DNA of 64,000 nt, taken from positions 218,204 through 282,203 of the forward strand of contig CAZWDO010000003.1 in NCBI GenBank assembly GCA_964632485.1. Reading direction: 5' to 3'. Source of the stretch: an uncultured bacterium. GTDB lineage: Bacteria; JAGOEH01. Positions within the stretch are counted from its first letter, which is position 1; every line of letters starts with the position of its first letter. Of this stretch, positions 1 to 35,538 are shown piece after piece. The notes beneath the pieces were generated by a model. The model was not told the DNA's origin, made no database searches, and was given only the letters and a program-made list of their open reading frames with translations. A program made the position numbers and the translations under genes.

Positions 1-3000
1 GGTACGGCTGGCAAACCTACGTTGAATTCGGCCGTCCGGTCGACATTCAGAACCTCAACGCCGGCGCCACATTGCCGTTTATCCGCTTCTGGGTTGCTGC
101 TCGTCCTTCTGGCTGTTGCGACAGTCCCGAAGGTTCGATGGATCCCAGTTTGGGTGTGGATCTGGCTAACGCCGCAATGACCAATCGCGCCAATTGGGGC
201 GATGAATTCTTTTTTGGAATGTTCCCGGATCTGTTTGGTCCGTGGATGGGTACTCAGGACGGAGAAGCCTATTCTCCATACCGTATCCTTCCCGGAACCG
301 ATTACACAGCTTGTCCGGAGATTCTGGGCGGCGGCACAACCTGGGAACCGGATCTCTTCGAGGTTCGTCCGTCCCTGTTGCTGCGTCCCCGCACCAAAAC
401 CGGCGCCGCGGCCTGGACCACGGTTGACGGTTCGGAAGCTTCGTGGAACAACAAGGCCAATGATAATTCCGTTCCCGCCATGTGGGATGTCCCCGGTTTG
501 ATTCATGGTTGGCAAGGTAATGTGGGTCCTGTGGTCGCCATTGTTGACCCGATGGTCTCCACTGCCTATGCCACTGTTGATTACACCGATGATGGCGATG
601 CAATTTATGAAGCGGCCGACTGGGCTGACGACATGGCGATCCCTACCGGGAACCGTTATGCCTATTCCAGCCAGCAGACTGCTACTCAGGGTGGCGTTTA
701 TACCAACGTCCCGCCTTACACAACCGATTCGATTCAGGTGATCACCTGGGTGATGCAGGATCTCGACAACTGCGCGGATGACACTACGATCCATATCGCC
801 GTTGATACGGGTAACTCCGTATTTGATAACAGCGCCGACTGGTTTGGCAGCGCCGCCAGCGCCGCCGGTATCACCAATAGCGATGCGATCCATTTGGGTA
901 TCGACTCGGTGATTTTCATTGATGACGATAATCGCGGAATCAATCAACGGACCAATGAATTGGGCAACGTGATCGATTATTCGACCGTCAACAATGATCC
1001 GTCCACCTATGCTGATGCTCGCGCTTTATTAGCCATGGGCGGCGCCGGCGCGCATCCCTTCGTGGTTACCAACCGCGCCAATTGCGGTGTGACGTTGATC
1101 CGCGATACCGCGTTATGCGTTGATACCTTGATTTTCAATATCTACCACACCGATATGAATTTGACCGCGGTCGGCGAAACCGATCTGCGCGATTTCGTAT
1201 GGCGTGATGGTATGGTTGTGACTGCCCGGTTGTATGTGAAAGACCGCGGCGGAAATACTGTTTATACGAATTACAGCAAAGCTACCGTTAATAACAATTT
1301 TGTCGGCCGTCCGACTGAAGCCTGGATTACAGCCGGCTATGTGGAAACACGCTTTGCCGTCGATTTGTCCGCGCCGATCGCCAAGATGACTTGCCCCGAG
1401 TACATCAACCGTCCGGGACTCGATTATCAGCCGATACGCGTGGTCAATACGACCGATCCGATTATTCGCATTGAAATCAAAGATGCCTTTTTAAGCGACA
1501 CCACCAATTCTGCGACTAAAGTGGTCAATTGTAATGGTGAAAACCTTTACCCGACCTACCAGCGCAGTGGCGGTATTAATTCCAACGCGATTTATGTGCA
1601 TGATGACAACGCGCATTGGGATGACGCGCTTGCTTACCATTCACCGACGTATGCCCAGTTGACCTCCGGTATCTGGCGTACGAACAATGGTCGCGATGCG
1701 ACACTGGCCCCGGCTCCGGGAACCGGTTTCGATACAACCAACTTCGCGATTCTTTTGACCGTATGGGATTGCGATAACAGTTTAGCGACCGATGACCGCT
1801 TCGATCCGACCAACTTCGGTTGGGATGACGATGAAGATTGGGACACCGACGCCCAGGGTATCTGGGAAGGCGCCGCCGCTCAGGTTTTTATCTGGGAAGT
1901 GGAAGCCGCCAATGGCGTAACGTACGCCAAAGATGCGACTAATCCTCAGAATGGTATCCTCAGCATCAATCTGGCTGATGATTATTTTGACGCATTGGGC
2001 GCCGATACTGAAGACGGCGATGTGATCCTGGTAGAAATCGTCGATGCCGCCCTGGTAGCCGCAAATCGCGTTGCCTGGGGTCATGCTGCTGTTCGCTCCG
2101 ACGGTATTCATGATCAGCCGAATATTCTCTGGAGTCGTTATACCATTAATGATAACCAGTCTTCTACTGATCTGGATGCTGACGCTGAACCAGATTATGC
2201 CGCCGCTACCGCAAACGCGGATGATAACGGCGTATTCCTGCGCGACGACAACTGGTGGTACAACCCGTTGGATGCCCAGAATGTCCCGTTGAACTACCAG
2301 ACGTTTAATTTTCCTACTGGCGTCAATGGCGCCAACCATGAAGCTTTTAATGAAGAGCTTTGCGAACGTTTTAAATTCCGTTTTGGCAATTTTCAGGCCA
2401 ATTTCAACTATGCGTTCGGCAACCCGAACAAGCATTTCCTCCGTTTGGATGAAACCGACAGCGACGATGACGGCGATCATGACGCTCCGGAATACGAATG
2501 GCAGGTTGGGCTTGCCGGTGCCGGTGCCGAAGGTGATTTCCTTGGCTTAGGCTGGTATTTCGCCGATGACGCGCTGCTCGACGCCAATTTGGATGTCGAT
2601 GGCCGCGAACAAGACGGTTATACCTACGCTTCCGATACTCTCGGTTGGTTCTACGTTGATATGACCGGACCAATCGTTGATCTGGAATCGGTATATCCGT
2701 TTATGCGCCGCACCGATGATGGCGATGCCACTTGGTTTGAAAATAACATTGACGGCGCTGTCGCCGGTCATGATGAAGTGGCTACCAATGCCGAAAATCT
2801 TTATTCCTATACTTCCGATCCGTATCAAGTTATTTCGCTTGATCTGGCTGATCTTTCCTGCCGTTTCTATTCGCGCGATTTCGCGGCCGGCATGTCGATG
2901 AGCTCGGTAAAGATGCGGATTAAAGTAACCGCGTGCGACGGTACTTACCACCCGTGGTTTGGACCGAACGGAACGGTTTTCTCGATTGGCAATGGCAACC

Positions 3001-6000
3001 TGGTATCGGCTGATGAGGCCCCTGCTGATTGCCCGGCCTTCTATTTCGACCGTCCCACTGATCTGAACGAAGGCGCTGATGGCGCTGTCGTAACCGATCA
3101 GGCCGCTGACCGCGATCTGGACGATGACGGAACCCCCGATATCGTTGAGAAAGTATTAGGCCGCGTGGGTGGTACAAATGCAGACGATTATGATCTGGCT
3201 GCCGTAACACCGCAGACCCGTATCGTTTTCGACGCGCGTTTAGGCGCCCGTGACACCGAAAACCGCTTGGGATTCGGCACGAGCGAACCTCGTTATCGTT
3301 TCCGCGACGGTGATATGGTTTGCGTGAGCGTGTACGCAACCGATGTCGCCACTGGCGATTGCGACGATAACAATATCGGTAATGAAATCATCAATGAAGC
3401 CGCTTCTGAAAACGGCAATGTAATTACCGATAGCAATTATTTCAAGTACACCTTTGCCGTAGATACCAAAGAACCCACTATTGCCATTCAGAACAGCAAT
3501 AACTGGATGGAATTGGGTTGTAATAACGCGTATGTAGATATCCGCCTCAGTGATGTCTGTGACGAATGTTTTCAGAGCAACCAGTGCGGTGATGTGGCTG
3601 CCGGCGTTGATTCGCTTTTCCTGCAGCTTGAATTCACCCCGCAAGGCTCTGCAACATCGCAACTCAATCGCATTGCCGTCGGTATTTCCGATCTCACCAA
3701 TGCCGCTAATGAATGGGATCCGGTGCTTGAATGGCTGAACCCCGGCATGGAGTGGAATCTGAATAACGCCGCTGCGACTGATCTGTACGGCGCTTTCCTC
3801 GAAGATGCCGAGATCACGGCTGATGCAGCAGTTGATGCGGATTTGCATAAGCATAATGAGTATGCCAGTTCAGCGAACGAAAAAGCAAAATTTAACCATT
3901 ATACCTTGCGTTTATGGTTTAATTGCGATTACGTTGATGATGGCGATATGATCAAAATTTCTGCCTGGGGCCGTGATGCGATTGATGTACCCTGGTACCC
4001 GATTAACAGCGGTTGGGAAAACGGCGGACAGCTCGGCGCGGCCGATCTATCCGAACACCTTTTCCCGCAGGCTTTTGACCGCGTTCAGCAATTGGGCGCC
4101 ATCAACCATTGGTCCACCGCCGATGGCGATTATTATTACGATGACGGCTTATACAATGATATCGAATTCGATACCTATAACTATCGTCGTCATTTTGAAC
4201 ATCCCAACTTCGATATCGACACCGCCCGTTTGAACGGGACGACAGCCGAATGGCGCTGGGATAACAACACGACGCCGACTCGCACCTGGGGTTATTTCAC
4301 TCAGAAGAGTCCGGCTGATTTCTGGTGGCAGGGTCCGTTATACGCCGTTGCCAATGGTACTAATGATTGGCGTACCGGTGTGAACGCTACTGCCGCTTTC
4401 TTGAAGGACAGCACAAACACCGTCGTCAGTTACAATTATGGTAACAGCGATACGCGCAATCGTATGTACGGATTCCAGTATATTCACTGGTACAACGTAT
4501 GTCCGTGGGCGCTGGATTATCTTGCGCAACGCGATTCGTTGCTGACTATCGGCGCCAACAAAGTCGGTAGCTACCGAATTGCCGGCGAACATGTCGGTGA
4601 CAACAACCTCTGGGATCGTGGCGATGTCGGAACGGTTGATGATGCCTGGGTGCCTGGTTCAAACTGGACAGATGTCTTCCAGTATGATATGACGGACTAC
4701 GATTGGACCGATCTGGATTCGATCATGGTAGCCAACGCCGTGCACCACAACTGGGCAAAGCCCGTGGAATCCAATACGATTACCGTCGTATCGAATTCCA
4801 ATCTGTCCCGTGTGTATGATGAAGACTGGAGCACTCGTACGGCTCATGAAGATTGGGCTTGGTCCAATCCTGCCGCGACCAATATCGCTCATAGCGCGCC
4901 TTATGCGGCGTCCTACGGTGATGTTATCCGCGCGGCTGTCGTTGGCAGCGATGTCGATGGCAATGTGATCCGTCAGTATCGCACTGGTTTAGTCGATACG
5001 ATTATGGTTGATTTCCGCTCATGCTGGGATTTCAACTATTGTCATGAACCGATTGCCAACGATACGACCGTCGGTTTTGCCATGGAATGTTACGACAAAG
5101 ACGGTAACATTAAATGGTACTGGCCGTACAAAGTAGATGATATCCGTTATGGCACGGGTAATACCCACGCCAACTGGGAAGCCGCGTTCGCGACCGATAA
5201 AGCCGCCGCTAATGCTAGCGGATTTGCTCCGATCGCTTATCGTTGGTTCGATTGCGATTGTCCCGGATGTAATGGCGTTCGCTGGGCCGCCCTGGCTGAC
5301 AGCGGCTATTGTGGCGCCAACAACTATCGTTTAACTGTTGATCTTAACCAGTTAATTACCTGGAAGACCAATGGCGATTCCGTATGGTTGTCCCGCGGCA
5401 ATACCACTACCGCCTATGCTGATGGCGACAGTGTAATTTGCTACACCTATCTCAGCACGACCGCGACCGATGTCAATGCCGATGATCACAAGATCATCAC
5501 CAGTTGGTACTATCTGATCGATCAGATGGCTCCAGTGGCTAATTTCAATGACATCGAAATGTACACTCCGACCACATCGACGCAGTTGGTTGGTACAGTT
5601 TTTGGTTGGAACTACTACAGTGGACCTTCCACCGGCAATATCGATATGGCCGTTACTGCCCGCACTGCCAGTCTGGCGACTCCAGAATTTTTGGGACTGA
5701 GCGCCAAGGGTGAACAGAACATGGGTCTGGAAGCCAAGCGTTACGATTTCGTACGTATGGGCTTAGCCAATGCCATGGACTATGAAACCCAGCGTACGAT
5801 CGCCGGAACGCAGTATATCTCCAAGGTCGGTTTGACCGGTACTGCCACCGATGTTCGCCATGTAATTGGTAAACAGGAAGCCGGCGTATTGCTGGATGGT
5901 AATGTTTGGACTCAGGATGCCCCTGATGCCAACGTACTGAATATCCCCAATACGATCTGGAACACCCATTACGGCGAAGCCTATGGCGGCGGATATCGCG

Positions 6001-9000
6001 ACACCACTTATTGGGGCGCTGTATATGTTCATGATCAACGCACCAATGTTCGCGAATACATTGATACCCTCAAGTTCTATCTGCAGGATCGTTTAGGCAA
6101 TACCTCGACCTATACCCGCACCTACGTCGTAGATAACATTCTGCCGAAGATGGTGTGGAACTATTGTAATGGTAATCTGAACAAGCAGATGAACCTGAAT
6201 GAAACCGGAAACGATGGTTATTTCGGTTACTGGTTGAATGGCGAAGGCACCAACACCGATTACGATTATACCAGCGAAATGGCTGATTTCGTCGATACGT
6301 TGGGTCTTGCTATTTATCAGGCCAGTGATGCCACGACCACCTGGGAATGGGTGGATGTACTGGCGCTCAAAGGCCATCGCAGTTATACCCCCAATACAGA
6401 CAATTCAGCGGCGGATGCCGATACGATTAAGAATGTCTGTAAGGGTCAAATTTATGTAGTCGTTAATTTTAACGATCTGATGTATACCTCCAAGCTTGAC
6501 GGACATACCTTCTCTTCCGCTGGCGCGGTTAAAATTAAACCGCAGACCGGAGCCTGGAAGAACGTCAGCGCGATTGCCGGAGACCAAGTGACTCGTTTTG
6601 CCGAGAAACTGGCCGGATGGGGCAATGTACCGATTTTGGTCGCACAGGCCAATATGGGTGAAGCCATCAGTGAAATCGCTGTTGCCGATTCCAAAGACCG
6701 CGAAATGCTGGCTGAAAAGTCGAAAAATGCTCAGTTGAGCGCGAAGTATTATGACCAGGATGGCTGGTTGGATGAAAATACCTGGGTTGGTGGCATTTAC
6801 ATCGATACCACTACCGGCTGGAACGGCACTGCCCGTATGTCGGTTGTTGGATTCTATGATAAAGCCGGCAACAAGATGGTAGAAGACACCAGTTTGTGTT
6901 TCTACATCGAGTTCATGACTTCCCAGGGCGACATCATCATCGCCAATCCGGATGCTGACGACATCTATCCAGATGCCGCCAACAGTTGTCAGAATTATAT
7001 TATGATGGAAGATACGGTTATCAACCGTTCCGCTGTCAGCTCCCATTACTGGTTCTACGCGACCAATGGCGTTTATGGTGGAGATTACGGCGCTGATAAC
7101 CAGTTTGACGCTCCGACCGCTTTCAATGCGTTTGGCAGCGTAACTCCCGCTACGAATGCCGCTACTCCGAAACGCGTGCTTTTGTCGCAGGACCGCGCGG
7201 TTGTTTACACCTATTTCCAGGGTAACGCCGCTACGTATACCGACGATTTCGTCACTCGTCAGGACGTCCAGTTCAAGGCCGCCATCGCCGGTATGTCCGG
7301 TTGTGTGGATTCGATTGCCAAGACGGTCGCTCCGATCGAAGTCGATTTCGAGGATCCCGCCGTTTCTATTCTGACTGCGGATATCAACGTGCGTACTGCT
7401 GTTAGCAGCTATCGCAACCTTTATATCGAATCAGAATATTACGACGATGTAACGGCTTACTACGATACCGATGACGCCACCCAGGCCGCCTTGGCTTTCG
7501 GTGAAATCACTGCCGTATCCTTTGCCGTTAAAGATATTACCCGTGGCGATGCTGCTTTCACAACCATAGATTATGCAACCTATACCGATCCGACGCCGGA
7601 AACCGGTTTAGGCTGGGCTTTGGAACTTGATTCCTTAGTAAAATATGGTTTGATTGCCAGCGTTTATGATTCGCTGCACATTCAGTTAACCGCGACTGAC
7701 AATGCGTGCAATACCGGCACCGCTGTCGTTCCGGTTCCGCGTTTGATCTACATGCCGGCTCTGCTGGTCCGTGGACGTTCGCATGTAACGGGCGTCGATC
7801 CGTTGGAAGACGCTGTTCGCTCCGCGAAGTTTGAAGGCCTTGGCGCGGGTTATGCCCGTGAAATCTGGCCGCCTTTCTTCATGTTCAACGAATCGATGGA
7901 AGCTACGGTTACCGATGCCTACACGACACCGGCCAACCCGATCCGTATTCTCGATAGCCTCCAGGTGACGACCTTCACCCATTACAATGAAGCCGATATG
8001 AATCCGGACGTCAATGATCCGTTTGGTCATCTGTTCACGACCACCAAGCGCGATTATCCGGGCGATTCGCTTTACCTTGTATATTTTGACGAAGGTAATT
8101 ATCTGGGAGCCACCGACGATGTTTTCTTCATCGTCGAAGGCGCTGAAGTTGCCAATGGTATCTACAATCCGGGCGTAAAATTCTCCGCTCAGGCTGAAAA
8201 TCCTGAATGGGAATTGGCTGCCCAGCAGACTACCGTTGACGGCGTTACTTTCTGGTATGCCAAGCTGGAACTCGAAGACGAAGACTATGACCAGGATCAG
8301 TTTGTCCAGGTTACCGTTCGCGTCGATACATTGACGACCGGCAAAGCCTACTCGAAGAAGTTCACCGATTATACTTGGTTCCTGTTGGATACCGAGGATC
8401 CGATTTATGATGTTACCTATACCGACGATCAAGGTGTTGATCTCAAACAGGTAGCGACTGCCGTTCAGGTGCTGAACACCGAATCGCAGGGTGGCTACTC
8501 AGTAGATAAGACTTTGGCCGACGCTGGCGACATGGTTTGGATTACCAATGGACAACGCATACACGCCCTGGTTGATATGAATCAAACCATGAGCGCGTTG
8601 GGCGAACCCGTTGAAGCTACTGCTCGTATGTGGAAGCATATTAACGTTGATTTTGAAGCTCCGACTCAGGTGAATATGCGTTCATCCGATGAAGCTTTCC
8701 AGATCGATGTTGATACGCAGACCTACAGCAATTTCAATAACTGGTTAGACAAAGATTCCGTCAAGATTTACGACTTCATGACCTTAATTAACAACAGCAA
8801 TCCTGCCAACAGCGGATTTGCCTGGGTTAAGGTTGAAGAGCGTGATGCCGCCGGTAACTATGTCCGCGACTGGTCAACTGACAAGTGCACGGGCTTGGTA
8901 GTCTATTTGGATACCAAGAAACCGAGCGCGCCGAATGCAGAAAAACTGGGCGCTTATGTCCCGACCGCTTTAGCTGCCAATAATGGTTATGGCGCTGATA

Positions 9001-10469
9001 AAGCCGGTATCCAGGTGCAAGCCATGGAATCCGGTGTAACCGTTTTCGGTTACGTAGGCGCTGCCATTGATGATAGCTGGCCGACTTCGCTGACCCAGCC
9101 CGATAACAGTGTAACGGTTTATATTTATGAAGATGCAACGACCGCCACTCCGTTGGCCACTGCGGTAGCCAAGAATGACGGTAGTTTCACCGTAAATATC
9201 GCCGATGCCACTGAAGACGATGTGTTCTATGTTGCTATCGCTGATTACGCCGGTAATATGTCCGATCGTACCATGGTCACCACCACCGCTATGATCACGC
9301 AGATGATTCCGCTCAATCAGGGCTGGAACCTCTTCAGCGTAAACGTGATGGGTGATGATCTGCAGAAAGTGCTGAAAAATGAGAACGCTGGCCTTTACGC
9401 CAACAGTTTCTTTTATTTCTACACTGAAATGCGCGATGGGACGATTAAATCCTATAAGAAAGAAGATATGGAAGCTCTGCAAGCGACCGATCTGACCGTT
9501 TCTTTAGGAGAAGATAATCTGGCTTACTGGATCTATATGCTGAATGCCGATACCCTGGAAGTTACCGGAACTCCTGTTGATCCGGTCACTGAGATCGAAT
9601 TGGCCGACGGCGTATGGAACTATGTGGCTTACCTGCCGACCACTTCCGCCAAGATTAGCGGCGCTTTCAGCGTAGCTACTCTGGAAAACGTTGATGCGAT
9701 CGCTTCCGATGCATGGCGTACCGATGTGGTTGAAGGTGTTGCCGCTTCCGACAATATGATGTACCCTGGTAAGGGTTATCTGGTTCTGCCTGGCGCCGAA
9801 GGCGTCACTATCGCTTATGCTGCTCAGGGCGCTTTGGCGAAAGCCGAAACCGCTCCCGCGCGCGTCAGCGAAATGGTTGCTTCCCGCTACATGCAGGCTT
9901 TTACCGGTGAAGCCATGTTCTATGGCAAACCCGCCTACGAAGGCGACAAGGTCGAAGTCTTCAACGCCAATGGCGTCAAGTGTGGCGAAGGCTCCGTTGA
10001 CAAAAACGGCCGCTATGAAATCCTCGTTTATGGTGATGATCCTGTCAGTGATGCCGACGAAGGTATCGCGTTGGGTGAAACCTTCATCGTTCGTATCAAC
10101 AACGAAGAAGCTGTTTTCGACAATGCGCCGCTGTATGCCGGTGACCTGAGCAAGAAAGCTCTGAACCTGAATGTTCAGAAACCGTTGCCGAAGGTTTTCA
10201 GCCTGAACCAGAACGTCCCGAACCCGTTCAATCCGTCCACGATCATATCGTACGATGTTCCGAAAGCTGCTCATGTATCCCTGGTTATTTACAATAATCT
10301 CGGTGAAAGAGTATGCGCTTTGGTGAATGGCGCCAAAGAACCTGGAACCTATACGATTCGCTGGAACGGCGAGAACCAAAAGGGCGAAAAAGTAGCCAGC
10401 GGTGTTTATTTCTACAAGATGAAAGCCGGGGATTTTGAAGATTCCCGTCAGATGATGCTTGTAAAATAA
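1..10469 (+). CDS. Giant secreted/cell-surface protein (>3465 aa, 5'-truncated by the window edge) with a C-terminal T9SS type-A sorting domain. It is Asp/Asn/Thr/Trp/Tyr-rich and carries multiple DxDxDG-like putative Ca-binding motifs.
   Basis: The reading frame is open from position 3 to the stop at 10469, with no in-frame stop upstream of the annotated TTG at 72. The C-terminus reads ...NQNVPNPFNPSTIISYDV...GVYFYKMKAGDF...LVK, typical of a Por/T9SS C-terminal domain. Acidic motifs include DYTDDGDA, DSDDDGDHD, DLDDDGTPD and DYVDDGDM. A terminator follows the gene. Confidence 0.8.
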   Translation, partial: YGWQTYVEFGRPVDIQNLNAGATLPFIRFWVAARPSGCCDSPEGSMDPSLGVDLANAAMTNRANWGDEFFFGMFPDLFGPWMGTQDGEAYSPYRILPGTDYTACPEILGGGTTWEPDLFEVRPSLLLRPRTKTGAAAWTTVDGSEASWNNKANDNSVPAMWDVPGLIHGWQGNVGPVVAIVDPMVSTAYATVDYTDDGDAIYEAADWADDMAIPTGNRYAYSSQQTATQGGVYTNVPPYTTDSIQVITWVMQDLDNCADDTTIHIAVDTGNSVFDNSADWFGSAASAAGITNSDAIHLGIDSVIFIDDDNRGINQRTNELGNVIDYSTVNNDPSTYADARALLAMGGAGAHPFVVTNRANCGVTLIRDTALCVDTLIFNIYHTDMNLTAVGETDLRDFVWRDGMVVTARLYVKDRGGNTVYTNYSKATVNNNFVGRPTEAWITAGYVETRFAVDLSAPIAKMTCPEYINRPGLDYQPIRVVNTTDPIIRIEIKDAFLSDTTNSATKVVNCNGENLYPTYQRSGGINSNAIYVHDDNAHWDDALAYHSPTYAQLTSGIWRTNNGRDATLAPAPGTGFDTTNFAILLTVWDCDNSLATDDRFDPTNFGWDDDEDWDTDAQGIWEGAAAQVFIWEVEAANGVTYAKDATNPQNGILSINLADDYFDALGADTEDGDVILVEIVDAALVAANRVAWGHAAVRSDGIHDQPNILWSRYTINDNQSSTDLDADAEPDYAAATANADDNGVFLRDDNWWYNPLDAQNVPLNYQTFNFPTGVNGANHEAFNEELCERFKFRFGNFQANFNYAFGNPNKHFLRLDETDSDDDGDHDAPEYEWQVGLAGAGAEGDFLGLGWYFADDALLDANLDVDGREQDGYTYASDTLGWFYVDMTGPIVDLESVYPFMRRTDDGDATWFENNIDGAVAGHDEVATNAENLYSYTSDPYQVISLDLADLSCRFYSRDFAAGMSMSSVKMRIKVTACDGTYHPWFGPNGTVFSIGNGNLVSADEAPADCPAFYFDRPTDLNEGADGAVVTDQAADRDLDDDGTPDIVEKVLGRVGGTNADDYDLAAVTPQTRIVFDARLGARDTENRLGFGTSEPRYRFRDGDMVCVSVYATDVATGDCDDNNIGNEIINEAASENGNVITDSNYFKYTFAVDTKEPTIAIQNSNNWMELGCNNAYVDIRLSDVCDECFQSNQCGDVAAGVDSLFLQLEFTPQGSATSQLNRIAVGISDLTNAANEWDPVLEWLNPGMEWNLNNAAATDLYGAFLEDAEITADAAVDADLHKHNEYASSANEKAKFNHYTLRLWFNCDYVDDGDMIKISAWGRDAIDVPWYPINSGWENGGQLGAADLSEHLFPQAFDRVQQLGAINHWSTADGDYYYDDGLYNDIEFDTYNYRRHFEHPNFDIDTARLNGTTAEWRWDNNTTPTRTWGYFTQKSPADFWWQGPLYAVANGTNDWRTGVNATAAFLKDSTNTVVSYNYGNSDTRNRMYGFQYIHWYNVCPWALDYLAQRDSLLTIGANKVGSYRIAGEHVGDNNLWDRGDVGTVDDAWVPGSNWTDVFQYDMTDYDWTDLDSIMVANAVHHNWAKPVESNTITVVSNSNLSRVYDEDWSTRTAHEDWAWSNPAATNIAHSAPYAASYGDVIRAAVVGSDVDGNVIRQYRTGLVDTIMVDFRSCWDFNYCHEPIANDTTVGFAMECYDKDGNIKWYWPYKVDDIRYGTGNTHANWEAAFATDKAAANASGFAPIAYRWFDCDCPGCNGVRWAALADSGYCGANNYRLTVDLNQLITWKTNGDSVWLSRGNTTTAYADGDSVICYTYLSTTATDVNADDHKIITSWYYLIDQMAPVANFNDIEMYTPTTSTQLVGTVFGWNYYSGPSTGNIDMAVTARTASLATPEFLGLSAKGEQNMGLEAKRYDFVRMGLANAMDYETQRTIAGTQYISKVGLTGTATDVRHVIGKQEAGVLLDGNVWTQDAPDANVLNIPNTIWNTHYGEAYGGGYRDTTYWGAVYVHDQRTNVREYIDTLKFYLQDRLGNTSTYTRTYVVDNILPKMVWNYCNGNLNKQMNLNETGNDGYFGYWLNGEGTNTDYDYTSEMADFVDTLGLAIYQASDATTTWEWVDVLALKGHRSYTPNTDNSAADADTIKNVCKGQIYVVVNFNDLMYTSKLDGHTFSSAGAVKIKPQTGAWKNVSAIAGDQVTRFAEKLAGWGNVPILVAQANMGEAISEIAVADSKDREMLAEKSKNAQLSAKYYDQDGWLDENTWVGGIYIDTTTGWNGTARMSVVGFYDKAGNKMVEDTSLCFYIEFMTSQGDIIIANPDADDIYPDAANSCQNYIMMEDTVINRSAVSSHYWFYATNGVYGGDYGADNQFDAPTAFNAFGSVTPATNAATPKRVLLSQDRAVVYTYFQGNAATYTDDFVTRQDVQFKAAIAGMSGCVDSIAKTVAPIEVDFEDPAVSILTADINVRTAVSSYRNLYIESEYYDDVTAYYDTDDATQAALAFGEITAVSFAVKDITRGDAAFTTIDYATYTDPTPETGLGWALELDSLVKYGLIASVYDSLHIQLTATDNACNTGTAVVPVPRLIYMPALLVRGRSHVTGVDPLEDAVRSAKFEGLGAGYAREIWPPFFMFNESMEATVTDAYTTPANPIRILDSLQVTTFTHYNEADMNPDVNDPFGHLFTTTKRDYPGDSLYLVYFDEGNYLGATDDVFFIVEGAEVANGIYNPGVKFSAQAENPEWELAAQQTTVDGVTFWYAKLELEDEDYDQDQFVQVTVRVDTLTTGKAYSKKFTDYTWFLLDTEDPIYDVTYTDDQGVDLKQVATAVQVLNTESQGGYSVDKTLADAGDMVWITNGQRIHALVDMNQTMSALGEPVEATARMWKHINVDFEAPTQVNMRSSDEAFQIDVDTQTYSNFNNWLDKDSVKIYDFMTLINNSNPANSGFAWVKVEERDAAGNYVRDWSTDKCTGLVVYLDTKKPSAPNAEKLGAYVPTALAANNGYGADKAGIQVQAMESGVTVFGYVGAAIDDSWPTSLTQPDNSVTVYIYEDATTATPLATAVAKNDGSFTVNIADATEDDVFYVAIADYAGNMSDRTMVTTTAMITQMIPLNQGWNLFSVNVMGDDLQKVLKNENAGLYANSFFYFYTEMRDGTIKSYKKEDMEALQATDLTVSLGEDNLAYWIYMLNADTLEVTGTPVDPVTEIELADGVWNYVAYLPTTSAKISGAFSVATLENVDAIASDAWRTDVVEGVAASDNMMYPGKGYLVLPGAEGVTIAYAAQGALAKAETAPARVSEMVASRYMQAFTGEAMFYGKPAYEGDKVEVFNANGVKCGEGSVDKNGRYEILVYGDDPVSDADEGIALGETFIVRINNEEAVFDNAPLYAGDLSKKALNLNVQKPLPKVFSLNQNVPNPFNPSTIISYDVPKAAHVSLVIYNNLGERVCALVNGAKEPGTYTIRWNGENQKGEKVASGVYFYKMKAGDFEDSRQMMLVK

Positions 10470-10494: not shown

Positions 10495-10526
10495 GGGTCA
10501 GGGCGCGAGCCCTGGCCCCCTTTTTT
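10495..10526 (+). terminator. Rho-independent terminator after the giant gene
   Basis: GC-rich stem gggtcagggc/gccctggccc with a gcga loop, followed by cccccTTTTTT. Confidence 0.5.
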
Positions 10527-10664
10527 CAGTTATTGCCTTGCGATACCTGAAAAAAGGGAAGCACCAAATAAAACCGACCAAGAAAAGGAGGCGCTGCTTC
10601 GGATCTTTTACACACGTCTATTGTTTCAGTTAACCAAAAACGCTCGTCAAAACGGAGGGTTTAA

Positions 10665-12326
10665 ATGAGCTTGAAAAAAACCTTGATTCTTTTCATGATT
10701 CTGACGCTGGGATTGATTGGATCTCTCAGCGCCCAAGTACGTTACATCGATATCCAGGGAACGCAGTCCTTTTATAATTGCGGTCCCGTTGAACCCGGCG
10801 CCATTATTGAAGCCTATAATCAATATGACGTCAAATTGGCTCAAACGATTGTTATTAATGGCGGCCGCTATAGCATCCGTATATTTGAGGCCGATACGAT
10901 TAATCAGATTTTCGGTGTTCAAGAAGGCGAATTGATCAGTCTGGTTATCGATGGAAATGAAGTCATGCCTTATGGAGCATACGAATACCCCATCGTCTAT
11001 GCCAACGAAACCGGCGCCGACGTCATTGATTTTGAGTTTATGGCTCAGGATCCGGATGTTGTAACTAAATCCATCTATTTTATGACTTTTTCCAGTAGCG
11101 CAACCTATCTGAATGGCGGCTTAGTTCCTGTTGGAGCCATTGTTGAAGCGTTTATTCTAGAAACGGGAAAACAGATTGGAATAGATACCGTAAAGGTGAA
11201 TGGCCGATATAATATGAGCGCGTATGCCGATGCGGATATTACTGATTTCTGCGTTGAAGGCGCGCAAGCCGGTGACTCGATTGTTTTCACCATTAATGGC
11301 GCGATGGCCAAAGTGGTTGCCGGAAATGCGACATTTACCAGCGCTATGGATGTACAGACCGTTGATTTGTGCGCCAATGACGGCGTTATCGGCAGCGCGC
11401 AGAGTTGTTCATTTTACGGCGCCGTTTCGGTCAATGGCGTCAATGCCACGGCTGGTACTATTGTTACCGCCTATGATACCGATGGCATTGTTTGCGGACA
11501 ATTTACACTGACCCAGAATGGCCATTACAGTATGCTGGTATTCGGCGATGATGCCGCCACCGATGATGTATGCATGGATGAAGGCGCCCTCGAAGGTGAA
11601 GAGGTGGTGTTCTTTGTCGATGATGAGCCGGCTACCCAGTCTCCAGCCAATGTGACCTGGGTGCGGAATGGTATGTTGGAAGTCAATCTGACCGTCGGAC
11701 AGGCTCAGAGTAACAGTTGGTGCGATTTTATCGGCATCAATTGTAAATTTAACGGCGCTCCGCTTGCCCAGGGAATGACCGTCGCGGCTTATAATGCCCT
11801 TGACGATCAAATGTGCGGCACAGCGACCGTCGGCGCTCTCGGCGCTTTTACTATACGGGTGGTCGGTAAATCCGAGACTCCCGTTGTCGAAGGCCCGGAA
11901 GAAAATGATCCGATCTATTTTATGATTAATAACGAACGCGCTGCGGTTAAATCTCCCTATAACGATACTCTGTTCAGCAATTGGGGCAGTAAGTATGTTA
12001 CTTTGGAATCGCGCGTGGTTCCTGTAGTGGAAGATCAGAAAATCAACAAATCGTTGGAATTGAAACAGAATTATCCGAATCCATTCAACGGAACCACGGT
12101 AATTAGTTTCAATCTGCCTTCCGCGCAGAAAGTTTCCCTCAAAGTGTACAATATGCTGGGAGAGGAAATCTGCGTATTGGCGAACCGAACGATGTCCGCC
12201 GGATCGCATGAAATCGTTTGGGACGGCCAGGATCGTAATGGCCGCAGCGTTCCTTCCAGTATTTATTATTACCAGTTGTTGACGGGTCAGGAAAAACTCG
12301 TTAAACGTATGGTTTATATGAAATAG
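10665..12326 (+). CDS. Secreted T9SS cargo protein (553 aa) with four tandem ~100-aa repeats of an unassigned module and a C-terminal T9SS sorting domain
   Basis: RBS GGAGGG precedes the ATG. The N-terminus is a signal peptide (MSLKKTLILFMILTLGLIGSLSAQ). The module recurs four times with NG[RH]Y..GDD...EGA..GE..F.IN motifs. The C-terminus reads KQNYPNPFNGTTVISFNLP...YYYQL...VYMK. Confidence 0.8.
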   Translation: MSLKKTLILFMILTLGLIGSLSAQVRYIDIQGTQSFYNCGPVEPGAIIEAYNQYDVKLAQTIVINGGRYSIRIFEADTINQIFGVQEGELISLVIDGNEVMPYGAYEYPIVYANETGADVIDFEFMAQDPDVVTKSIYFMTFSSSATYLNGGLVPVGAIVEAFILETGKQIGIDTVKVNGRYNMSAYADADITDFCVEGAQAGDSIVFTINGAMAKVVAGNATFTSAMDVQTVDLCANDGVIGSAQSCSFYGAVSVNGVNATAGTIVTAYDTDGIVCGQFTLTQNGHYSMLVFGDDAATDDVCMDEGALEGEEVVFFVDDEPATQSPANVTWVRNGMLEVNLTVGQAQSNSWCDFIGINCKFNGAPLAQGMTVAAYNALDDQMCGTATVGALGAFTIRVVGKSETPVVEGPEENDPIYFMINNERAAVKSPYNDTLFSNWGSKYVTLESRVVPVVEDQKINKSLELKQNYPNPFNGTTVISFNLPSAQKVSLKVYNMLGEEICVLANRTMSAGSHEIVWDGQDRNGRSVPSSIYYYQLLTGQEKLVKRMVYMK

Positions 12327-12424: not shown

Positions 12425-12592
12425 GTCATTCCGGGCTCGCGCCCGGAATCCACGGGTCACCTTCTGTCATTCCGGGCTTGACCCGGAATCCAACGATAAA
12501 CGATGGATGCCGGATCGGAGTCCGGCATGACGACGGATGATGGCATTCCGGCTTGACCGCCAGCGCGGCTCGCGCCCGGAATCCACGGGTCA
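12425..12592. repeat. Cluster of at least 4 GC-rich palindromic REP/MITE-like hairpin repeats (GTCATTCC-stem-loop-GGAATCC family)
   Basis: Perfect hairpins are present: gtcATTCCGGGCtcgcGCCCGGAATcc at 12425-12451, gtcATTCCGGGcttgaCCCGGAATcc at 12466-12491 and ATGCCGGAtcggagTCCGGCAT at 12507-12528. The segment ctcgcgcccggaatccacgggtca is duplicated at 12564-12592. Confidence 0.6.
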
Positions 12593-12605
12593 AAAAACCA
12601 ACTAT

Positions 12606-14351
12606 ATGAAAGGAACAAGCATGAGAAGAGTTTTTCAATATCTTCTGCTAATATTAATATCTATTATATCGGTCAGCCAAGCCCAGCAGTCCTGGAGAGT
12701 TGGATTTAAGCTGTATGTATTTATCGATAGCGTCAAAGCGCCCATTCATACAATCGTTGAAGTAAGAGATGTTAATGGTAGTCAATATGATAGTCAAAGT
12801 AAACCCTATGCGTCTCCAATAGTCTCAGAAGTTGAAACATCCTTAGGTACGGCTTTTATTAATGCTCTGGGCGATAATCCGAATACTTCCACAGTACAGG
12901 AAGGCGGATTTACTATTGGCCAAAAAATTTATTTCTATGTCAATAGCAAACGGGCAACAGTTAAGTGTAAGAGCCCGAGTAGTAATTGTGATCTTTATAC
13001 TAACCCTTCTGATCCTACGTTTCCCCCTTCCCAACGGGAGCTGGAAATTTACATTTCTTCCCAGCAACAGACCATTGATACATGTACTTTTACAGGCAGT
13101 GTGTTCATCAACAATGCGCCGGCTCCGGCAGGCTCCCAGATATCGTTTCACGACAAGAACAATCCTACAACATACACCTGGAAAACGATCGCCACTTCGT
13201 CATTGGGCTCATACACGGTAAAAATTGCGGAAGATGATCCGGAAACTACCGGTAAGCAAGGTCCTCTTGATGGAGACACTTTGATTGCGCGAATAAATAA
13301 TTTGTCCGCCGGATCGGATATCCCGCTTATTTTCCGTCCGGGACAAACCCAAATGGTAAGTCTTTCCTATACGGACCCTGACACTTTGCTGTGTACATTT
13401 AATGGAATGATGTGTATGCTGGACGGTCAATTCATAACGTCTCTGGTAACTGTGGAGGCCTTTAATAAGTACAATAAAGTGTGCGGCGCGGCAATCGGGA
13501 CATCCACTCCGGTTCCGGGTTCGTTTACCTTGAATGTTCGCAAAGAAAAAGGCGATAATACCGGTGTCGTAGAAGGCGATTCTGTTTATTTTAAGTTTAA
13601 CGGAGGCAAGGCCCGAACGACAACCATGAGTCCGACGCTTTCTCCATTTTTTTGTTATGAGGATTCCTCATATATGGTGGTTTTGGAAGCAACAACTCCG
13701 CCGCCACCCCAACCGGATACTAATTTTTTTATGCAGTTGTCCGGAACATTGTATGCCGGAGGAGCAGTGGCCAAGCGAAATCTGATTACTGTTAAAACCA
13801 GCGGGAAGACCATGGCTTGTACCACCGCTACCAACGATAACGGACAATTTATCCTGAAAGCCTGGGGCGATAGTCCGTTGACTACCGATGTGGTTGAAGG
13901 CTTTGAGGATGAAGATACCCTGACTTTTTACCATCTTTACAACGGAACAAATCAACCCGTTCAGATGCTCTATCCGACGACGCCCATCACATATGAATTG
14001 TTTGGACTGATTGCGAATATTATGATTTATAACAGTATCGTCGATATAGAAGCAGAAGAAACGCTGATCAAATCTCCAGCTCTGCTTTTATCCAATATTC
14101 CTAATCCGTTCAACCCCGGTACAAATATCCGCTTTAATTTAACAGAACGAACCAATGTGCAGATAACTATATTTAATGTGTTGGGGAATGAAATCAGGCG
14201 ATTGTCAAACCAGCTTTTCCCGGCGGGTGAACACCAGCTCTACTGGAACGGTTGCAGCGATCAGGGTGAACCTCAGTCCGCTGGTATCTACTTTGTCCGT
14301 TTACGGGCAGCGGATATGCAGCATACGCAGAAAATCACACTGATGAAATGA
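12606..14351 (+). CDS. Secreted T9SS cargo protein (~580 aa) with repeated modules related to the upstream neighbour. The start is probably ATG 12606 or 12621, not 12537, which lies inside the repeats.
   Basis: Signal peptide MRRVFQYLLLILISIISVSQAQ. The internal modules carry DNGQFILKAWGD...VVEGFEDEDTLTF-type motifs. The C-terminus reads LSNIPNPFNPGTNIRFNL...GIYFVRL..., a T9SS CTD. GC content is lower than in the flanking genes. Confidence 0.75.
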   Translation: MKGTSMRRVFQYLLLILISIISVSQAQQSWRVGFKLYVFIDSVKAPIHTIVEVRDVNGSQYDSQSKPYASPIVSEVETSLGTAFINALGDNPNTSTVQEGGFTIGQKIYFYVNSKRATVKCKSPSSNCDLYTNPSDPTFPPSQRELEIYISSQQQTIDTCTFTGSVFINNAPAPAGSQISFHDKNNPTTYTWKTIATSSLGSYTVKIAEDDPETTGKQGPLDGDTLIARINNLSAGSDIPLIFRPGQTQMVSLSYTDPDTLLCTFNGMMCMLDGQFITSLVTVEAFNKYNKVCGAAIGTSTPVPGSFTLNVRKEKGDNTGVVEGDSVYFKFNGGKARTTTMSPTLSPFFCYEDSSYMVVLEATTPPPPQPDTNFFMQLSGTLYAGGAVAKRNLITVKTSGKTMACTTATNDNGQFILKAWGDSPLTTDVVEGFEDEDTLTFYHLYNGTNQPVQMLYPTTPITYELFGLIANIMIYNSIVDIEAEETLIKSPALLLSNIPNPFNPGTNIRFNLTERTNVQITIFNVLGNEIRRLSNQLFPAGEHQLYWNGCSDQGEPQSAGIYFVRLRAADMQHTQKITLMK

Positions 14352-14433: not shown

Positions 14434-14721
14434 ATGGATCAGGCTTATGTTTATATATTAGCCAGTAAAAAAAATGGAACATTGTATGTTGGAGTGACCA
14501 GCAATTTGCTCCGACGAATTTGGGAACATAAAAATGATCTTGTAGAAGGATTTACAAAGAACTACAATGTCCATGTGCTGGTTTTTTATGAAATTTTTAG
14601 TGAGATGTATCCGGCAATTACTCGTGAAAAGCAGTTGAAAAAATGGAAAAGAGAATGGAAGATAGGACTAATAGAGTCTATAAATCCGCAATGGAAAGAT
14701 TTGTATGAAAGTCTTTTATAA
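14434..14721 (+). CDS. GIY-YIG nuclease family protein (95 aa, UPF0213/YhbQ-like)
   Basis: YVYILASKKNGTLYVGVTSNLLRRIWEHK followed by ...REKQLKKWKREWKIGLI match the GIY-YIG catalytic core pattern (GIY...YVG...R...E). Confidence 0.8.
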   Translation: MDQAYVYILASKKNGTLYVGVTSNLLRRIWEHKNDLVEGFTKNYNVHVLVFYEIFSEMYPAITREKQLKKWKREWKIGLIESINPQWKDLYESLL

Positions 14722-16485: not shown

Positions 16486-16810
16486 ATTGAACGCGCAGCA
16501 AATTTTTTTACTCGACAATTCAACAAATTTTTAGTCATAAATATTTTAATTTTGATTTGAGTATGTAAAGGTTTTTTTTCTAAATGAAATTCTATAGTAA
16601 GTTTAGTTGAGTTTTAAAAATTAACTTATTATTAATCAATCACATCGAAATATATTTGTTTATTAAATACACAGTATTTGCCATTTGAGGACTCGCTTTT
16701 GGCAGCAAATTTTTATATATGGACACAAATCAGACAAATTTCACTCCTGAAAGTGGTCAGGAAAAAACTTGAGTTTTAAGTTGGAATGAAAAATGCAATA
16801 TTGTACATGT

Positions 16811-18052
16811 ATGAAAATTAGAAGTCGAATTATACTCAGTTTCCTTCCTTTCCTTCTCCTTAGCGGAACCATGGAGGGACGGGTCTGGTTGGTAGCGGTC
16901 GGTATCGATCGATACCTCGATGCCCGCATCCCGTCTCTCCACTATCCGTCAGCCGATGTAAGCTACGTGCTTGATGTATTAGCTGTAAATCCCAGTCGCG
17001 TGATACCCCGTCAGTTGCTGAATGAGGAAGCGACCTGGCGCGGATTGCGAAGTCTGCTACTAAATACATTGCAACGGCAAATGGTTGATACTGATACCCT
17101 GGTTTTCTATTTTTCAGGGCATGGGCATTTTCTGGAGGACTCGAAATTGGGCAATCATCAATATATAGCGCTCTATGACAGCTCGCCGGATGATATGAGT
17201 ACCTACCTTAATGAAGATGAATTAGCCGGATGGCTTGATCGGATTCACTGCCGTTTGAAAATTCTTATTTTTGATTCCTGCTCACCGATGGACTTTCGAA
17301 TTGAGGCAATTTCAACACTGCCGTTAAATAATCCCCGAAGTTTAAAGAATATGCTTATATGGTCTGCCAATCAGGAGCAGGGAAAAACATGGGAGGTACC
17401 ATTTCTCAACCATTCGGCATTTACGTTTCTTCTGATGCAAGCATGGAAAGGTTACGCCGATGCGGATCGTAACGGTAAAGTCAGCGTTAAAGAGACCCGT
17501 CGTTATCTGGACTCGATGATCCTGAAAATTCCAGGCGCTGCCGAATATCGGCCACAAACCGTCGTCAATGGCGATCCGTTGACATTAAATGATTTTCAGT
17601 GGGTTTATCCGCCGCAGATTATATCACAGGCGATAGTGGTTGCAATCGACAGCAGTCATGCTGTTATTGACATGGGTAGAGAAAATTTGCCATCCAGGAA
17701 TGCGATTTGCTATCATCCCGCCACTCAGCAACGCTATAAATTTTTAGAGATACTGGATTATGCTGCTATGATCGAACGCAACGGCATGTTAAAAATGGGA
17801 GATCGGTTGGAGATTAAAATGCCGGATGCAGGTGGGGAATTGATTCTGGAAGTTAAACCCTGGGCCATGGCCGAATTGAATCAACGCCCCTACGGTTATA
17901 CTCCCCTGCGAATCAAAGATTTAGCTCCCGGCGAGTATAAGTTGCGCTTGACTCATCCGGAACTGGGCGCCCGGGTTCTTAATTTTTCGTTGACGCCTGG
18001 CGAGCAAAAACGACTTTTTATCAATTTTGCTGAACTACCGGAGTCGGAATGA
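16811..18052 (+). CDS. Secreted caspase-like cysteine peptidase (peptidase C14/CHAT-like fold) with a C-terminal PEGA domain
   Basis: Signal peptide MKIRSRIILSFLPFLLLSG. The caspase His/Cys dyad context is present: VGIDRY...YFSGHGH...ILIFDSCS. The C-terminal PYGYTPLRIKDLAPGEYKLRLTHPELG matches the PEGA motif. A 4-bp ATGA overlap joins it to the next gene. Confidence 0.7.
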   Translation: MKIRSRIILSFLPFLLLSGTMEGRVWLVAVGIDRYLDARIPSLHYPSADVSYVLDVLAVNPSRVIPRQLLNEEATWRGLRSLLLNTLQRQMVDTDTLVFYFSGHGHFLEDSKLGNHQYIALYDSSPDDMSTYLNEDELAGWLDRIHCRLKILIFDSCSPMDFRIEAISTLPLNNPRSLKNMLIWSANQEQGKTWEVPFLNHSAFTFLLMQAWKGYADADRNGKVSVKETRRYLDSMILKIPGAAEYRPQTVVNGDPLTLNDFQWVYPPQIISQAIVVAIDSSHAVIDMGRENLPSRNAICYHPATQQRYKFLEILDYAAMIERNGMLKMGDRLEIKMPDAGGELILEVKPWAMAELNQRPYGYTPLRIKDLAPGEYKLRLTHPELGARVLNFSLTPGEQKRLFINFAELPESE

Positions 18053-20073: not shown

Positions 20074-21458
20074 CCGCTCAGATACTGGTTGTGGATGATG
20101 AACTCTATATGCGGGATACGATTGCCCATATATTAATGGATGAAGGGTACCGCGTGATGACTGCCGGTGATGGCGCAGAGGCGCTTAAAGAGATCGAAAA
20201 AACGGCGTTTGATGTCGTTTTAACCGATTTGCGCATGCCGGGTGAGATTAATGGTATGAAACTGCTTGAAATGATAAAGCAACGTGAATTTGAAACAAAA
20301 ACTATTATGATGACGGCTTACAGTAGCGTGGAAACCGCTGTTGACGCTATGCGGTTTGGAGCTTTTGACTATATACAAAAGCCGTTTCAACCGGTGGAAT
20401 TGAAAGTCAGAATCCAGCGGGCAGTGGAATCGATCCGCCGTCAACGGGTGGCGGAGAGTCAATTAGAGGAAGTGGATCAACGTTATACACTCATTGGTTT
20501 ATCACCGGCAATGGATGAAATCCGCCGATCGATCAAAGAGATCAGTCAAACAGATTTTCCTGTGTTGATTACCGGAGAAAGCGGTACGGGGAAGGAGTTG
20601 GTAGCGCGGCAGATTCACTTACAGAGCCGACGGCGGGAACAGCCTTTCGTGGCGCTGAATGTATCCACAATGAATGGTAATCTGGTTGAAAGCGAACTTT
20701 TCGGCCATGAAAAAGGGGCGTTTACCGGCGCTGTGAACCGGCGGATCGGGAAATTTGAACTGGCAACTGATGGCTCGCTTTTTCTTGACGAAATCGGTGA
20801 TTTAGACCTCGAAATGCAAACTAAATTCTTACGTGTATTACAGGAAAAAGAGTTTCATCGTGTGGGAGGCAATCAGTTGATTGTAACAAACACTCGCATT
20901 ATCGCCGCTACATTGCAGGATCTCTCTACCATGATTCAGGAAAATCGGTTTCGAGAAGACTTGTTTTACCGTTTGAATGTATATCCAATTCACATGCCGC
21001 CATTACGCCGACGCAAAGAGGATATCCCATTGCTGTTGGAACATATAGTCCGCAAGCATGAAGGCCAGATACCCCAACCCGTTGAACGCGTGGAGCCGGG
21101 TGTTGTCGATCGATTATGCGCGTATAATTGGCCCGGGAATGTGCGGGAATTTGAAAATGTCATAATTCGTATGCTGATCAGAACTCGGGATGGCGTGTTA
21201 CGGGCAGAGCAGATTCCGGCAGACATCGGTGGAACGGGCTTCATGCTGCAAGAAGGAGATAAGGAAACGTTGGAACAGTTAACCGATCGCTGGTTGGATA
21301 AAGTGATGCAAACAGGGAAAAACAAACCCCTGATGCAGTTCATCGAAAGTCTGATTGCTCAACGGTTTTTTATGCTTCACGGGGAAAAACAACGCGCGGC
21401 CGATTTGTTGGGCATTTCAAAACCGACCTATTTTAAATGGTTAAAGCGAGAATTATGA
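20070..21458 (+). CDS. Sigma-54-dependent response regulator (NtrC family: REC, AAA+ with GAFTGA, HTH)
   Basis: DDELYMRD...TDLRMPG (REC domain), GESGTGKE Walker A, EKGAFTGA sigma54-contact motif, and a C-terminal HTH (LLGISKPTYFKWLK). Confidence 0.85.
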   Translation: MTAQILVVDDELYMRDTIAHILMDEGYRVMTAGDGAEALKEIEKTAFDVVLTDLRMPGEINGMKLLEMIKQREFETKTIMMTAYSSVETAVDAMRFGAFDYIQKPFQPVELKVRIQRAVESIRRQRVAESQLEEVDQRYTLIGLSPAMDEIRRSIKEISQTDFPVLITGESGTGKELVARQIHLQSRRREQPFVALNVSTMNGNLVESELFGHEKGAFTGAVNRRIGKFELATDGSLFLDEIGDLDLEMQTKFLRVLQEKEFHRVGGNQLIVTNTRIIAATLQDLSTMIQENRFREDLFYRLNVYPIHMPPLRRRKEDIPLLLEHIVRKHEGQIPQPVERVEPGVVDRLCAYNWPGNVREFENVIIRMLIRTRDGVLRAEQIPADIGGTGFMLQEGDKETLEQLTDRWLDKVMQTGKNKPLMQFIESLIAQRFFMLHGEKQRAADLLGISKPTYFKWLKREL

Positions 21459-22693: not shown

Positions 22694-22703
22694 CCTTTCC
22701 CCA

Positions 22704-23753: not shown

Positions 23754-23768
23754 ATTAGGGAGAGAATT

Positions 23769-28339: not shown

Positions 28340-28348
28340 GAGGATTTG

Positions 28349-34855: not shown

Positions 34856-34857
34856 GG

Positions 34858-35523: not shown

Positions 35524-35538
35524 ATTGTGTGTATCCTG

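Follow-up and report, generated by a model that had tools for sequence, protein, structure and literature searches.

Type IX secretion system (T9SS) cargo proteins that carry a type-A C-terminal sorting domain (CTD) include the gingipains of Porphyromonas gingivalis and RemA and ChiA of Flavobacterium johnsoniae. The gliding-motility adhesin SprB of F. johnsoniae, a protein of ~6500 aa with extended SprB-repeat arrays and a CTD of type B, is the precedent for the handling of very large cargo by this system. Giant adhesins of type I secretion systems (T1SS), such as LapA, SiiE and MpIBP, carry dozens of near-identical immunoglobulin (Ig) repeats and a C-terminal T1SS/RTX signal. Here, these systems are compared with a giant gene at the 5' edge of a 64,000-nucleotide stretch of DNA from an uncultured bacterium (contig CAZWDO010000003.1, positions 218,204 to 282,203; hereafter the window). 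Its product is probably an exported T9SS cargo, with a proposed function beyond export as a surface adhesin or a structural coat protein.

The gene lies on the plus strand. Its frame is open from window nucleotide 3 to the stop codon at 10467-10469, a run of 3488 sense codons with zero internal stops that would arise in random sequence with a probability of ~(61/64)^3488, or ~1e-73. A mechanical list of open reading frames (ORFs) begins the gene at a TTG codon at nucleotide 72; the frame is nevertheless open to the 5' edge of the window, as the original prediction of a giant, 5'-truncated ORF had pointed out. The missing 5' end was supplied by a source-record stretch of the Joint Genome Institute (JGI), L002, reached via the JGI fragment P0002. 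Because window nucleotide 1 corresponds to L002:2032 while the ATG lies at L002:1095, the first 313 codons are absent from the window. The ATG stands immediately 3' of a strong Shine-Dalgarno stretch, TAAGGAGGAAACTGA. The complete gene of 3801 codons (11.4 kb) is thus divided as follows:

3..10469, plus strand: in-window part of the giant gene, 3488 codons plus stop.
L002:1095-2033, upstream of the window: first 313 codons, with the ATG, the Shine-Dalgarno sequence AAGGAGG and the Sec signal peptide.

At full length the product comprises 3801 aa (419 kDa), with a pI of 4.2 and a net charge of about -297. Residue numbers below refer to the in-window part unless full-length numbering is stated.

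JGI annotates the gene as two overlapping calls of 2969 and 834 aa with a 10-N gap inside it, the pattern that an assembly chimera or pseudogene would give if two genes had been joined through wrong gap filling. A relative (L003) with a stop codon and a frameshift near the end of its contig could be cited for the same explanation. The source record, scaffold Ga0207193_1000008 of JGI 3300020048 (316,795 bp), was found through the downstream 553-aa gene. Base-by-base comparison places its gap (L001:7144-7153, equal to L002:9844-9853) exactly opposite five real bases of the window:

7813..7817, plus strand: CTGTT, five bases at the JGI 10-N gap, in frame and encoding part of LEDAVRSAKF.

Because 10 Ns replace these five bases, the JGI frame slips and the gene is split. 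The window version is judged right because a single frame runs across the gap for 3488 codons, because the junction peptide LEDAVRSAKF is conserved as LDEAVKSIKV in the partial relative P0003, which is colinear to both sides, and because NCBI calls an identical 3801-aa product (P0012) on a 316,876-bp contig. The window proteins are likewise present on that NCBI contig. The same strain was found in other samples: sequence L009, from a second sample, covers the C-terminal 1.5 kb of the gene and shows 3 differences over 1488 nt, of which the two in coding sequence are synonymous. The organism is also present in the assemblies ENA ERZ27262927 and Logan SRR7760392. The giant gene is complete and intact, the seeming frameshift of the JGI version stems from its N-gap and leaves the prediction standing, and a chimeric or decayed gene is extremely unlikely.

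At the level of sequence, the giant protein carries both marks of a type-A T9SS cargo. The first is an N-terminal Sec signal peptide, MSKKMTWSLLIIFSLLMMVGSMMA/APQP (the slash marks the putative cleavage site), which is the sole hydrophobic segment of the whole protein. The second is the sorting domain:

10218..10466, plus strand: type-A T9SS sorting domain at the C-terminus, aa 3406-3488, signature PNPFNPST ... SGVYFY ... MMLVK.

The NCBIfam model for type-A domains, TIGR04183, matches aa 3406-3483 of 3488 with 25.7 bits against a cutoff of 23, and the best Pfam match of the domain is FlgD_ig (37.7 bits against a cutoff of 27). Both matches agree with the type-A assignment of the original prediction. 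Of the type-B models, CHU_C stays below threshold over this stretch (25.7 versus 27 bits), and TIGR04131 gave no match in the giant protein among NCBIfam results at E<=1. The CTD aligns with those of P0003 and of four other Sec-signal proteins of the neighborhood, and the aligned domains show the canonical pattern QNYPNPFNP-T-I-Y ... SG-YFY ... M-L-K. Because these neighbor domains are canonical and three of the four exceed the Pfam Por_Secre_tail threshold, the identification of the giant's CTD as a T9SS type-A sorting domain is sound.

A different reading of the same domain would make it a FlgD-type Ig domain with a non-T9SS role, for example in a host without a T9SS, with export or anchoring by another route. 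It would account for a top Pfam match to FlgD_ig rather than Por_Secre_tail and for FlgD being the sole similarity in PDB. No T9SS machinery was seen in the window or within 10 kb downstream, and Delongiibacteriota is listed by NCBI taxonomy among candidate phyla outside the Fibrobacterota-Chlorobiota-Bacteroidota (FCB) group, which would also suit such a role. This explanation is nevertheless very unlikely given that TIGR04183 scores above its curated cutoff, that the domain sits at the extreme C-terminus with the PNPFNP, GxYFY and terminal K motifs, and that five Sec-signal proteins within 30 kb bear such a domain, as expected of a sorting tag.

The giant protein resembles described type-A cargo in combining a Sec signal peptide with a ~80-aa C-terminal beta-sandwich sorting domain that matches TIGR04183 and has the PNPFNP / GxYFY / terminal-K motifs, and in being encoded among other CTD-bearing genes. 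It differs in its length of 3801 aa, in a body that belongs to no described family, in a top Pfam model of FlgD_ig rather than Por_Secre_tail, and in its host, which belongs to an uncultivated lineage outside the Bacteroidota for which T9SS function is unstudied. The comparison with SprB made in the original prediction stands for size and secretion route, as the giant would, like SprB, be a very large, T9SS-exported cell-surface protein. It does not extend to the CTD, which is type A in the giant and type B in SprB, or to the repeats: no SprB repeat was matched in the giant by Pfam at E<=1-5, and no internal repetition was found. Among the neighbors of the giant gene, themselves CTD cargo, there is no PorP_SprF match that would point to a PorP/SprF partner.

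The body of the protein is unusual in composition, as had been predicted. Relative to 13 other window proteins, the levels of Asp (10.0%), Thr (8.3%), Asn (7.3%), Tyr (5.4%) and Trp (2.7%) are about doubled, and Leu, Glu, Lys and Arg are depleted relative to the same set. The predicted lack of an assignable function also holds. Pfam and NCBIfam name only the last ~80 aa and one bacterial Ig domain:

9141..9284, plus strand: Big_6 bacterial Ig domain, best stretch aa 3047-3094, E = 2e-11 on the segment, the sole Pfam domain of the body.

The remaining ~3300 aa have no match in Pfam, NCBIfam, PDB, PHROGs or PADLOC. Ten module-sized segments searched against Pfam at E<=5 gave nothing beyond Big_6, and the N-terminal 313 aa upstream of the window have no domain match. 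Searches of PDB by sequence and by family profile returned only weak FlgD similarity, confined to the CTD. Internal repeats, whose absence had been predicted, were found neither with phmmer tiles (best i-E = 0.0025 at 9 bits) nor by hhalign of 160-aa slices of the family alignment (peak of ~50% probability over 16 residues). Tandem Ig, FN3 or cadherin copies of ~90-100 aa do not make up most of the protein, and domain parsing, with its single Big_6, does not reduce the giant to such common repeats. As a separate observation, the G+C content at third codon positions is 0.557 in the giant gene (3-10469) and 0.56-0.57 in sbcCD (27107-32053), while the remaining genes examined have values of 0.38-0.50. 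A bias tied to expression, the amino-acid composition or a foreign origin may account for the raised values.

Relatives were sought with word-index searches of 5.8 billion proteins and with an exhaustive HMMER search that used the middle 1200 aa against 1.84 billion representatives. Besides fragments of the giant itself, these gave only four proteins. P0001 (1182 aa) and P0005 (1498 aa) are partial sequences from a sludge-digester metagenome-assembled genome of Candidatus Delongbacteria (GCA_017997825.1), P0003 is a partial sequence of 1624 aa on a 5.1-kb JGI contig, and P0004 is a canonical tandem Ig (Big_7/Big_13) array that matches the giant over a single 40-aa stretch. When 185,579 GTDB species genomes were scanned by pattern, nothing turned up except the same two Delongbacteria contigs.

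The three partial relatives are 35-37% identical to the giant and colinear with it over aa 456-1688 and 2138-3801 in full-length numbering. For instance, P0001 spans aa 456-1688 at 35% identity and P0003 spans aa 2138-3801 at 36%. P0001 and P0005 are taken as paralogs because they are only 64% identical where they overlap. Identity runs at 20-64% per 50 aa along the whole length, with lineage-specific insertions between, and conservation is highest for Cys (61%), Pro, Trp, Gly and Asp, a pattern that fits a folded, disulfide-containing extracytoplasmic protein. The alignments point to a tiny orphan family whose body is non-repetitive and conserved end to end. Because all relatives are contig-limited fragments, the giant locus provides its only full-length member. 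In the relative from JGI 3300036573 (L003:1-212), the homologous stretch extends upstream past the called start, through a stop codon and in a different frame; the stop and frameshift lie ~100-130 nt from the contig end and may reflect either an error at the end of the contig or the decay of this copy.

An eight-residue motif recurs through this body. The pattern Φ-x-[VIL]-D-x-x-x-P occurs in 9 copies, against 0.72 +/- 0.82 expected (1000 shuffles, maximum 4), and all nine are kept in every relative that covers them:

1353..1376, plus strand: boundary motif 1, FAVDLSAP, aa 451-458, identical in P0001 and P0005.
2649..2672, plus strand: boundary motif 2, FYVDMTGP, aa 883-890.
3453..3476, plus strand: boundary motif 3, FAVDTKEP, aa 1151-1158.
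5511..5534, plus strand: boundary motif 4, YLIDQMAP, aa 1837-1844.
6123..6146, plus strand: boundary motif 5, YVVDNILP, aa 2041-2048, with DRLGN ahead of it.
7335..7358, plus strand: boundary motif 6, IEVDFEDP, aa 2445-2452.
8379..8924, plus strand: boundary motifs 7-9, aa 2793, 2880 and 2967, flanking two 87-aa modules of canonical Ig-domain size.

In its strand-plus-linker signature the motif equals ...AGN...VTVDNTPP of the Big_7/Big_13 array P0004. The region of motif 5 is the sole stretch that matches a canonical Big_7/Big_13 Ig repeat, that of P0004, and the only motif region with a match outside the family. The giant resembles Ig arrays such as those built of Big_7, Big_13 or Big_6 in its nine conserved copies of the D-x-x-G-N ... 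Φ-x-V-D-x-x-x-P signature, and in the one Big_6 domain and two 87-aa modules near its C-terminus. It differs in that its boundaries delimit irregular modules, from 87 to about 690 aa, which have no domain-level match beyond Big_6 and are not detectably homologous to each other. Since the Big_7 match covers one strand and a linker, and AlphaFold2 failed, the motifs suggest the ends of Ig-like modules and do not amount to a domain assignment.

Toward the C-terminus the order is two 87-aa modules, Big_6, a region with GWNLFS...PGKGYLV, a ~95-aa unit and the CTD. Two further conserved features of the body were mapped:

9303..10202, plus strand: conserved pre-CTD region, GWNLFS ... GVWNYVAYLP ... 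YPGKGYLV, then the ~95-aa unit.
5244..5285, plus strand: Cys cluster RWFDCDCPGCNGVR, aa 1748-1761, retained in P0005 and present as DCRGCNG in L003.

The pre-CTD region has no PDB or Pfam match, and its ~95-aa unit is common to the giant and to the 553-aa and 604-aa cargo encoded downstream. The Cys cluster reads W-F-D-C-D-C-P-G-C-N-G and is accompanied by more conserved Cys at aa 1674, 1680, 1696 and 1770. For RWFDCDCPGCNGVR, either a disulfide knot or a role as metal site is conceivable.

The original prediction had singled out the protein for at least six acidic, calcium-binding-like motifs of the thrombospondin type 3 (TSP3) kind, and this part did not survive. Only 2 isolated sites fit DxDxDG (0.29 expected). 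DDGD shows enrichment, with 4 copies against 0.27 expected, and DxDxD has 11 against 3.3. The 12-residue TSP3-type consensus DxDxDGxxDxxD has 0 matches in the giant, and the Pfam family TSP_3 gave none even at E<=5. Four of the six motifs (DDGDA, DDGDAT, DDDGTPD and DGDYYYDDG) fall in lineage-specific insertions or unaligned stretches. DDGDM is partly kept, with only DGD conserved, within DGD-x-Φ-x-Φ-x-x-WGRDAI. The sole conserved motif of the six is LRLDETDSDDDG-H-APEY (aa 813-831), which fits DxDxDG:

2439..2495, plus strand: LRLDETDSDDDGDHDAPEY, candidate single DxDxDG-type Ca2+ site, aa 813-831, DSDDDG in P0005 and DSDDAG in P0001.

Because only one of the six motifs is conserved in relatives, at most one specific Ca2+ site is plausible, and the conserved motif is the candidate. 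A Ca2+-dependent giant adhesin organized around multiple TSP3-like or DxDxDG loops could draw on the excess of DDGD and DxDxD, on the conserved DSDDDG site and on the strongly acidic charge of the protein. With only two DxDxDG sites, no TSP3 consensus or TSP_3 match, and four of the motifs missing from relatives and one partly kept, such an adhesin is improbable. Moreover, several DGD motifs stand in a recurring DGD-x-Φ-x-Φ context (RDGDMVCVSV, DDGDMIKISA, EDGDVILVEI) that looks more like a strand start than like a loop. The giant resembles proteins with TSP3 or DxDxDG loops in its short Asp-rich patches and single DSDDDG; it differs in that its motifs are mostly unconserved and not in tandem. 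With the T1SS adhesins it has in common a large size, a highly acidic character, probable surface exposure and possible cation binding, whereas its non-repetitive body and its Sec signal and T9SS CTD set it apart. Overall, the observation behind the original prediction is partly confirmed, and its interpretation is partly supported.

The un-annotated body also leaves room for a secreted giant multi-domain enzyme, for instance one that degrades polysaccharides or cell walls, with catalytic domains too divergent for profiles. Apart from the ~3300 aa without annotation, this idea is favored by a Trp/Tyr/Asn/Asp-rich composition that recalls carbohydrate-active or carbohydrate-binding proteins. 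It is also favored by several highly conserved motifs that do not look structural (NPNKH-LRLDETDSDD, SYTSDPYQVI-LDL-DLSC, CDG-YHP--GPNG and DCDCPGCNG), and hydrolases are common among T9SS exports. However, neither Pfam and NCBIfam (E<=1-5) nor sequence and profile searches of PDB turned up a catalytic family, and no glycan-utilization genes are adjacent, which leaves an enzyme distinctly unlikely. Somewhat less unlikely, though still doubtful, is a body that forms a string of undescribed folds, perhaps with enzymatic or metal-binding modules (DCDCPGCNG being an example), and not a divergent Ig stalk.

The sequence evidence is most consistent with an exported surface protein whose path can be outlined in conditional terms. 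The giant would be exported by Sec and would fold in the periplasm, where its conserved cysteines may form disulfides. The T9SS would then recognize the type-A CTD and move the protein across the outer membrane, after which it would be surface-anchored following CTD cleavage, or released. The C-terminal 700 aa (the two 87-aa modules, Big_6, two more conserved domains and the CTD) may serve as a cell-proximal stalk. The N-terminal 2800 aa, whose modules are large and irregular and abound in Asp, Asn, Thr, Trp and Tyr, may form the distal, ligand- or cation-binding part. Any cation binding beyond the one candidate Ca2+ site would come from bulk negative charge.

Several points weigh against this reading. 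On the side of export, Pfam Por_Secre_tail (PF18962) scores the giant below threshold, at 16.1 versus 27 bits, T9SS machinery genes are missing from the window and from the ~10 kb read on either side of it, and the link of the host to a phylum is indirect. On the side of structure, the Ig-like modules derive from an eight-residue motif, and the Big_7 repeat HMM, compared with the family, covers no more than the last strand and linker in a single module. AlphaFold2 gave a mean pLDDT of 26.9 for aa 1-1200 and 29.1 for aa 2289-3488, from 3- and 2-sequence alignments. Finally, the adhesion role is one that we infer, and the protein may harbor a cryptic catalytic domain.

The giant gene is apparently monocistronic, as its flanking sequence shows its own promoter-like site, a strong terminator-like hairpin and a 1035-nt AT-rich spacer that separates it from the upstream gene, which encodes a 2347-aa CTD-bearing protein. 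The promoter-like site, TTGACA-17-TATTAT, lies ~190 nt 5' of the ATG and agrees with the consensus at 11/12 positions, by consensus match only. On the 3' side, likewise by consensus match only, the following was found:

10495..10528, plus strand: intrinsic-terminator-like hairpin plus T-run, 10 pairs of which 8 are G-C, 26 nt past the stop.

No riboswitch or structured leader was detected upstream of the giant, where Rfam gave no match near threshold and the leader fold has z = -1.1. The spacer also holds a 52-aa ORF call.

T9SS-tailed genes cluster around the giant gene, with the one for the 2347-aa protein upstream and those for 553-, 604- and 506-aa proteins downstream. The first two of the downstream set are:

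10665..12326, plus strand: 553-aa T9SS cargo, with pre-CTD unit and CTD in common with the giant.
12537..14351, plus strand: 604-aa T9SS cargo, with pre-CTD unit and CTD in common with the giant.

Both contain the ~95-aa unit (C-F-G...G-PA--GD-V...G--CG...G-Y---V-GDDP-TD--EG---GE...IN) in 2 or 3 copies, and no Pfam or PDB match was found for it there. The upstream 2347-aa gene (region L002:1-1094) has faint matches to Ig_Rha78A_N, CHU_C and Por_Secre_tail. Between the 604-aa cargo gene and a sodium:solute symporter gene, at window 14434-14721 (L001:13770-14057), JGI annotates a GIY-YIG domain gene of 95 aa together with a 60-aa ORF. Further along, abutting or overlapping plus-strand genes at 16793-25289 encode a caspase-like C14/PEGA protein, a CHASE2 histidine kinase, a sigma-54 response regulator, an LB_137-like 418-aa protein, a Big_7 protein and the 506-aa T9SS-CTD protein, a run that looks like one signaling-plus-surface operon. 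On the minus strand, 34160-36108 holds genes for a LemA/MamQ-like protein (35539-36108), an unannotated 221-aa ORF (34858-35523) and a Psb32/TPM-like protein (34160-34855). Downstream of the window, L007:3530-13475 carries an mreB-mreC-mreD-PBP2-rodA operon and a glycyl-tRNA synthetase gene after htpG.

A giant, T9SS-tailed secreted surface protein is a known kind of object; the orphan, non-repetitive body is what is unusual here, and no evidence points to a new mechanism. At present the protein counts as a further large 'hypothetical' T9SS cargo, and the idea of calcium repeats, which had singled it out, fails. The locus also illustrates how an N-gap in a public scaffold can make two mis-called genes from one gene of 3801 aa. 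Other members of the family are fragments on 3-5-kb contigs because such genes break short-read assemblies, which leaves this locus as the only full-length, validated sequence of an orphan giant secreted family. The literature consulted says almost nothing about the Delongiibacteriota. If the body does consist of undescribed folds, the giant would be the founding full-length member of lineage-specific, giant T9SS-exported surface machines in Delongiibacteriota-like bacteria. Should it hold new folds or activities, it would open a route into the cell-surface biology of a barely known candidate phylum.

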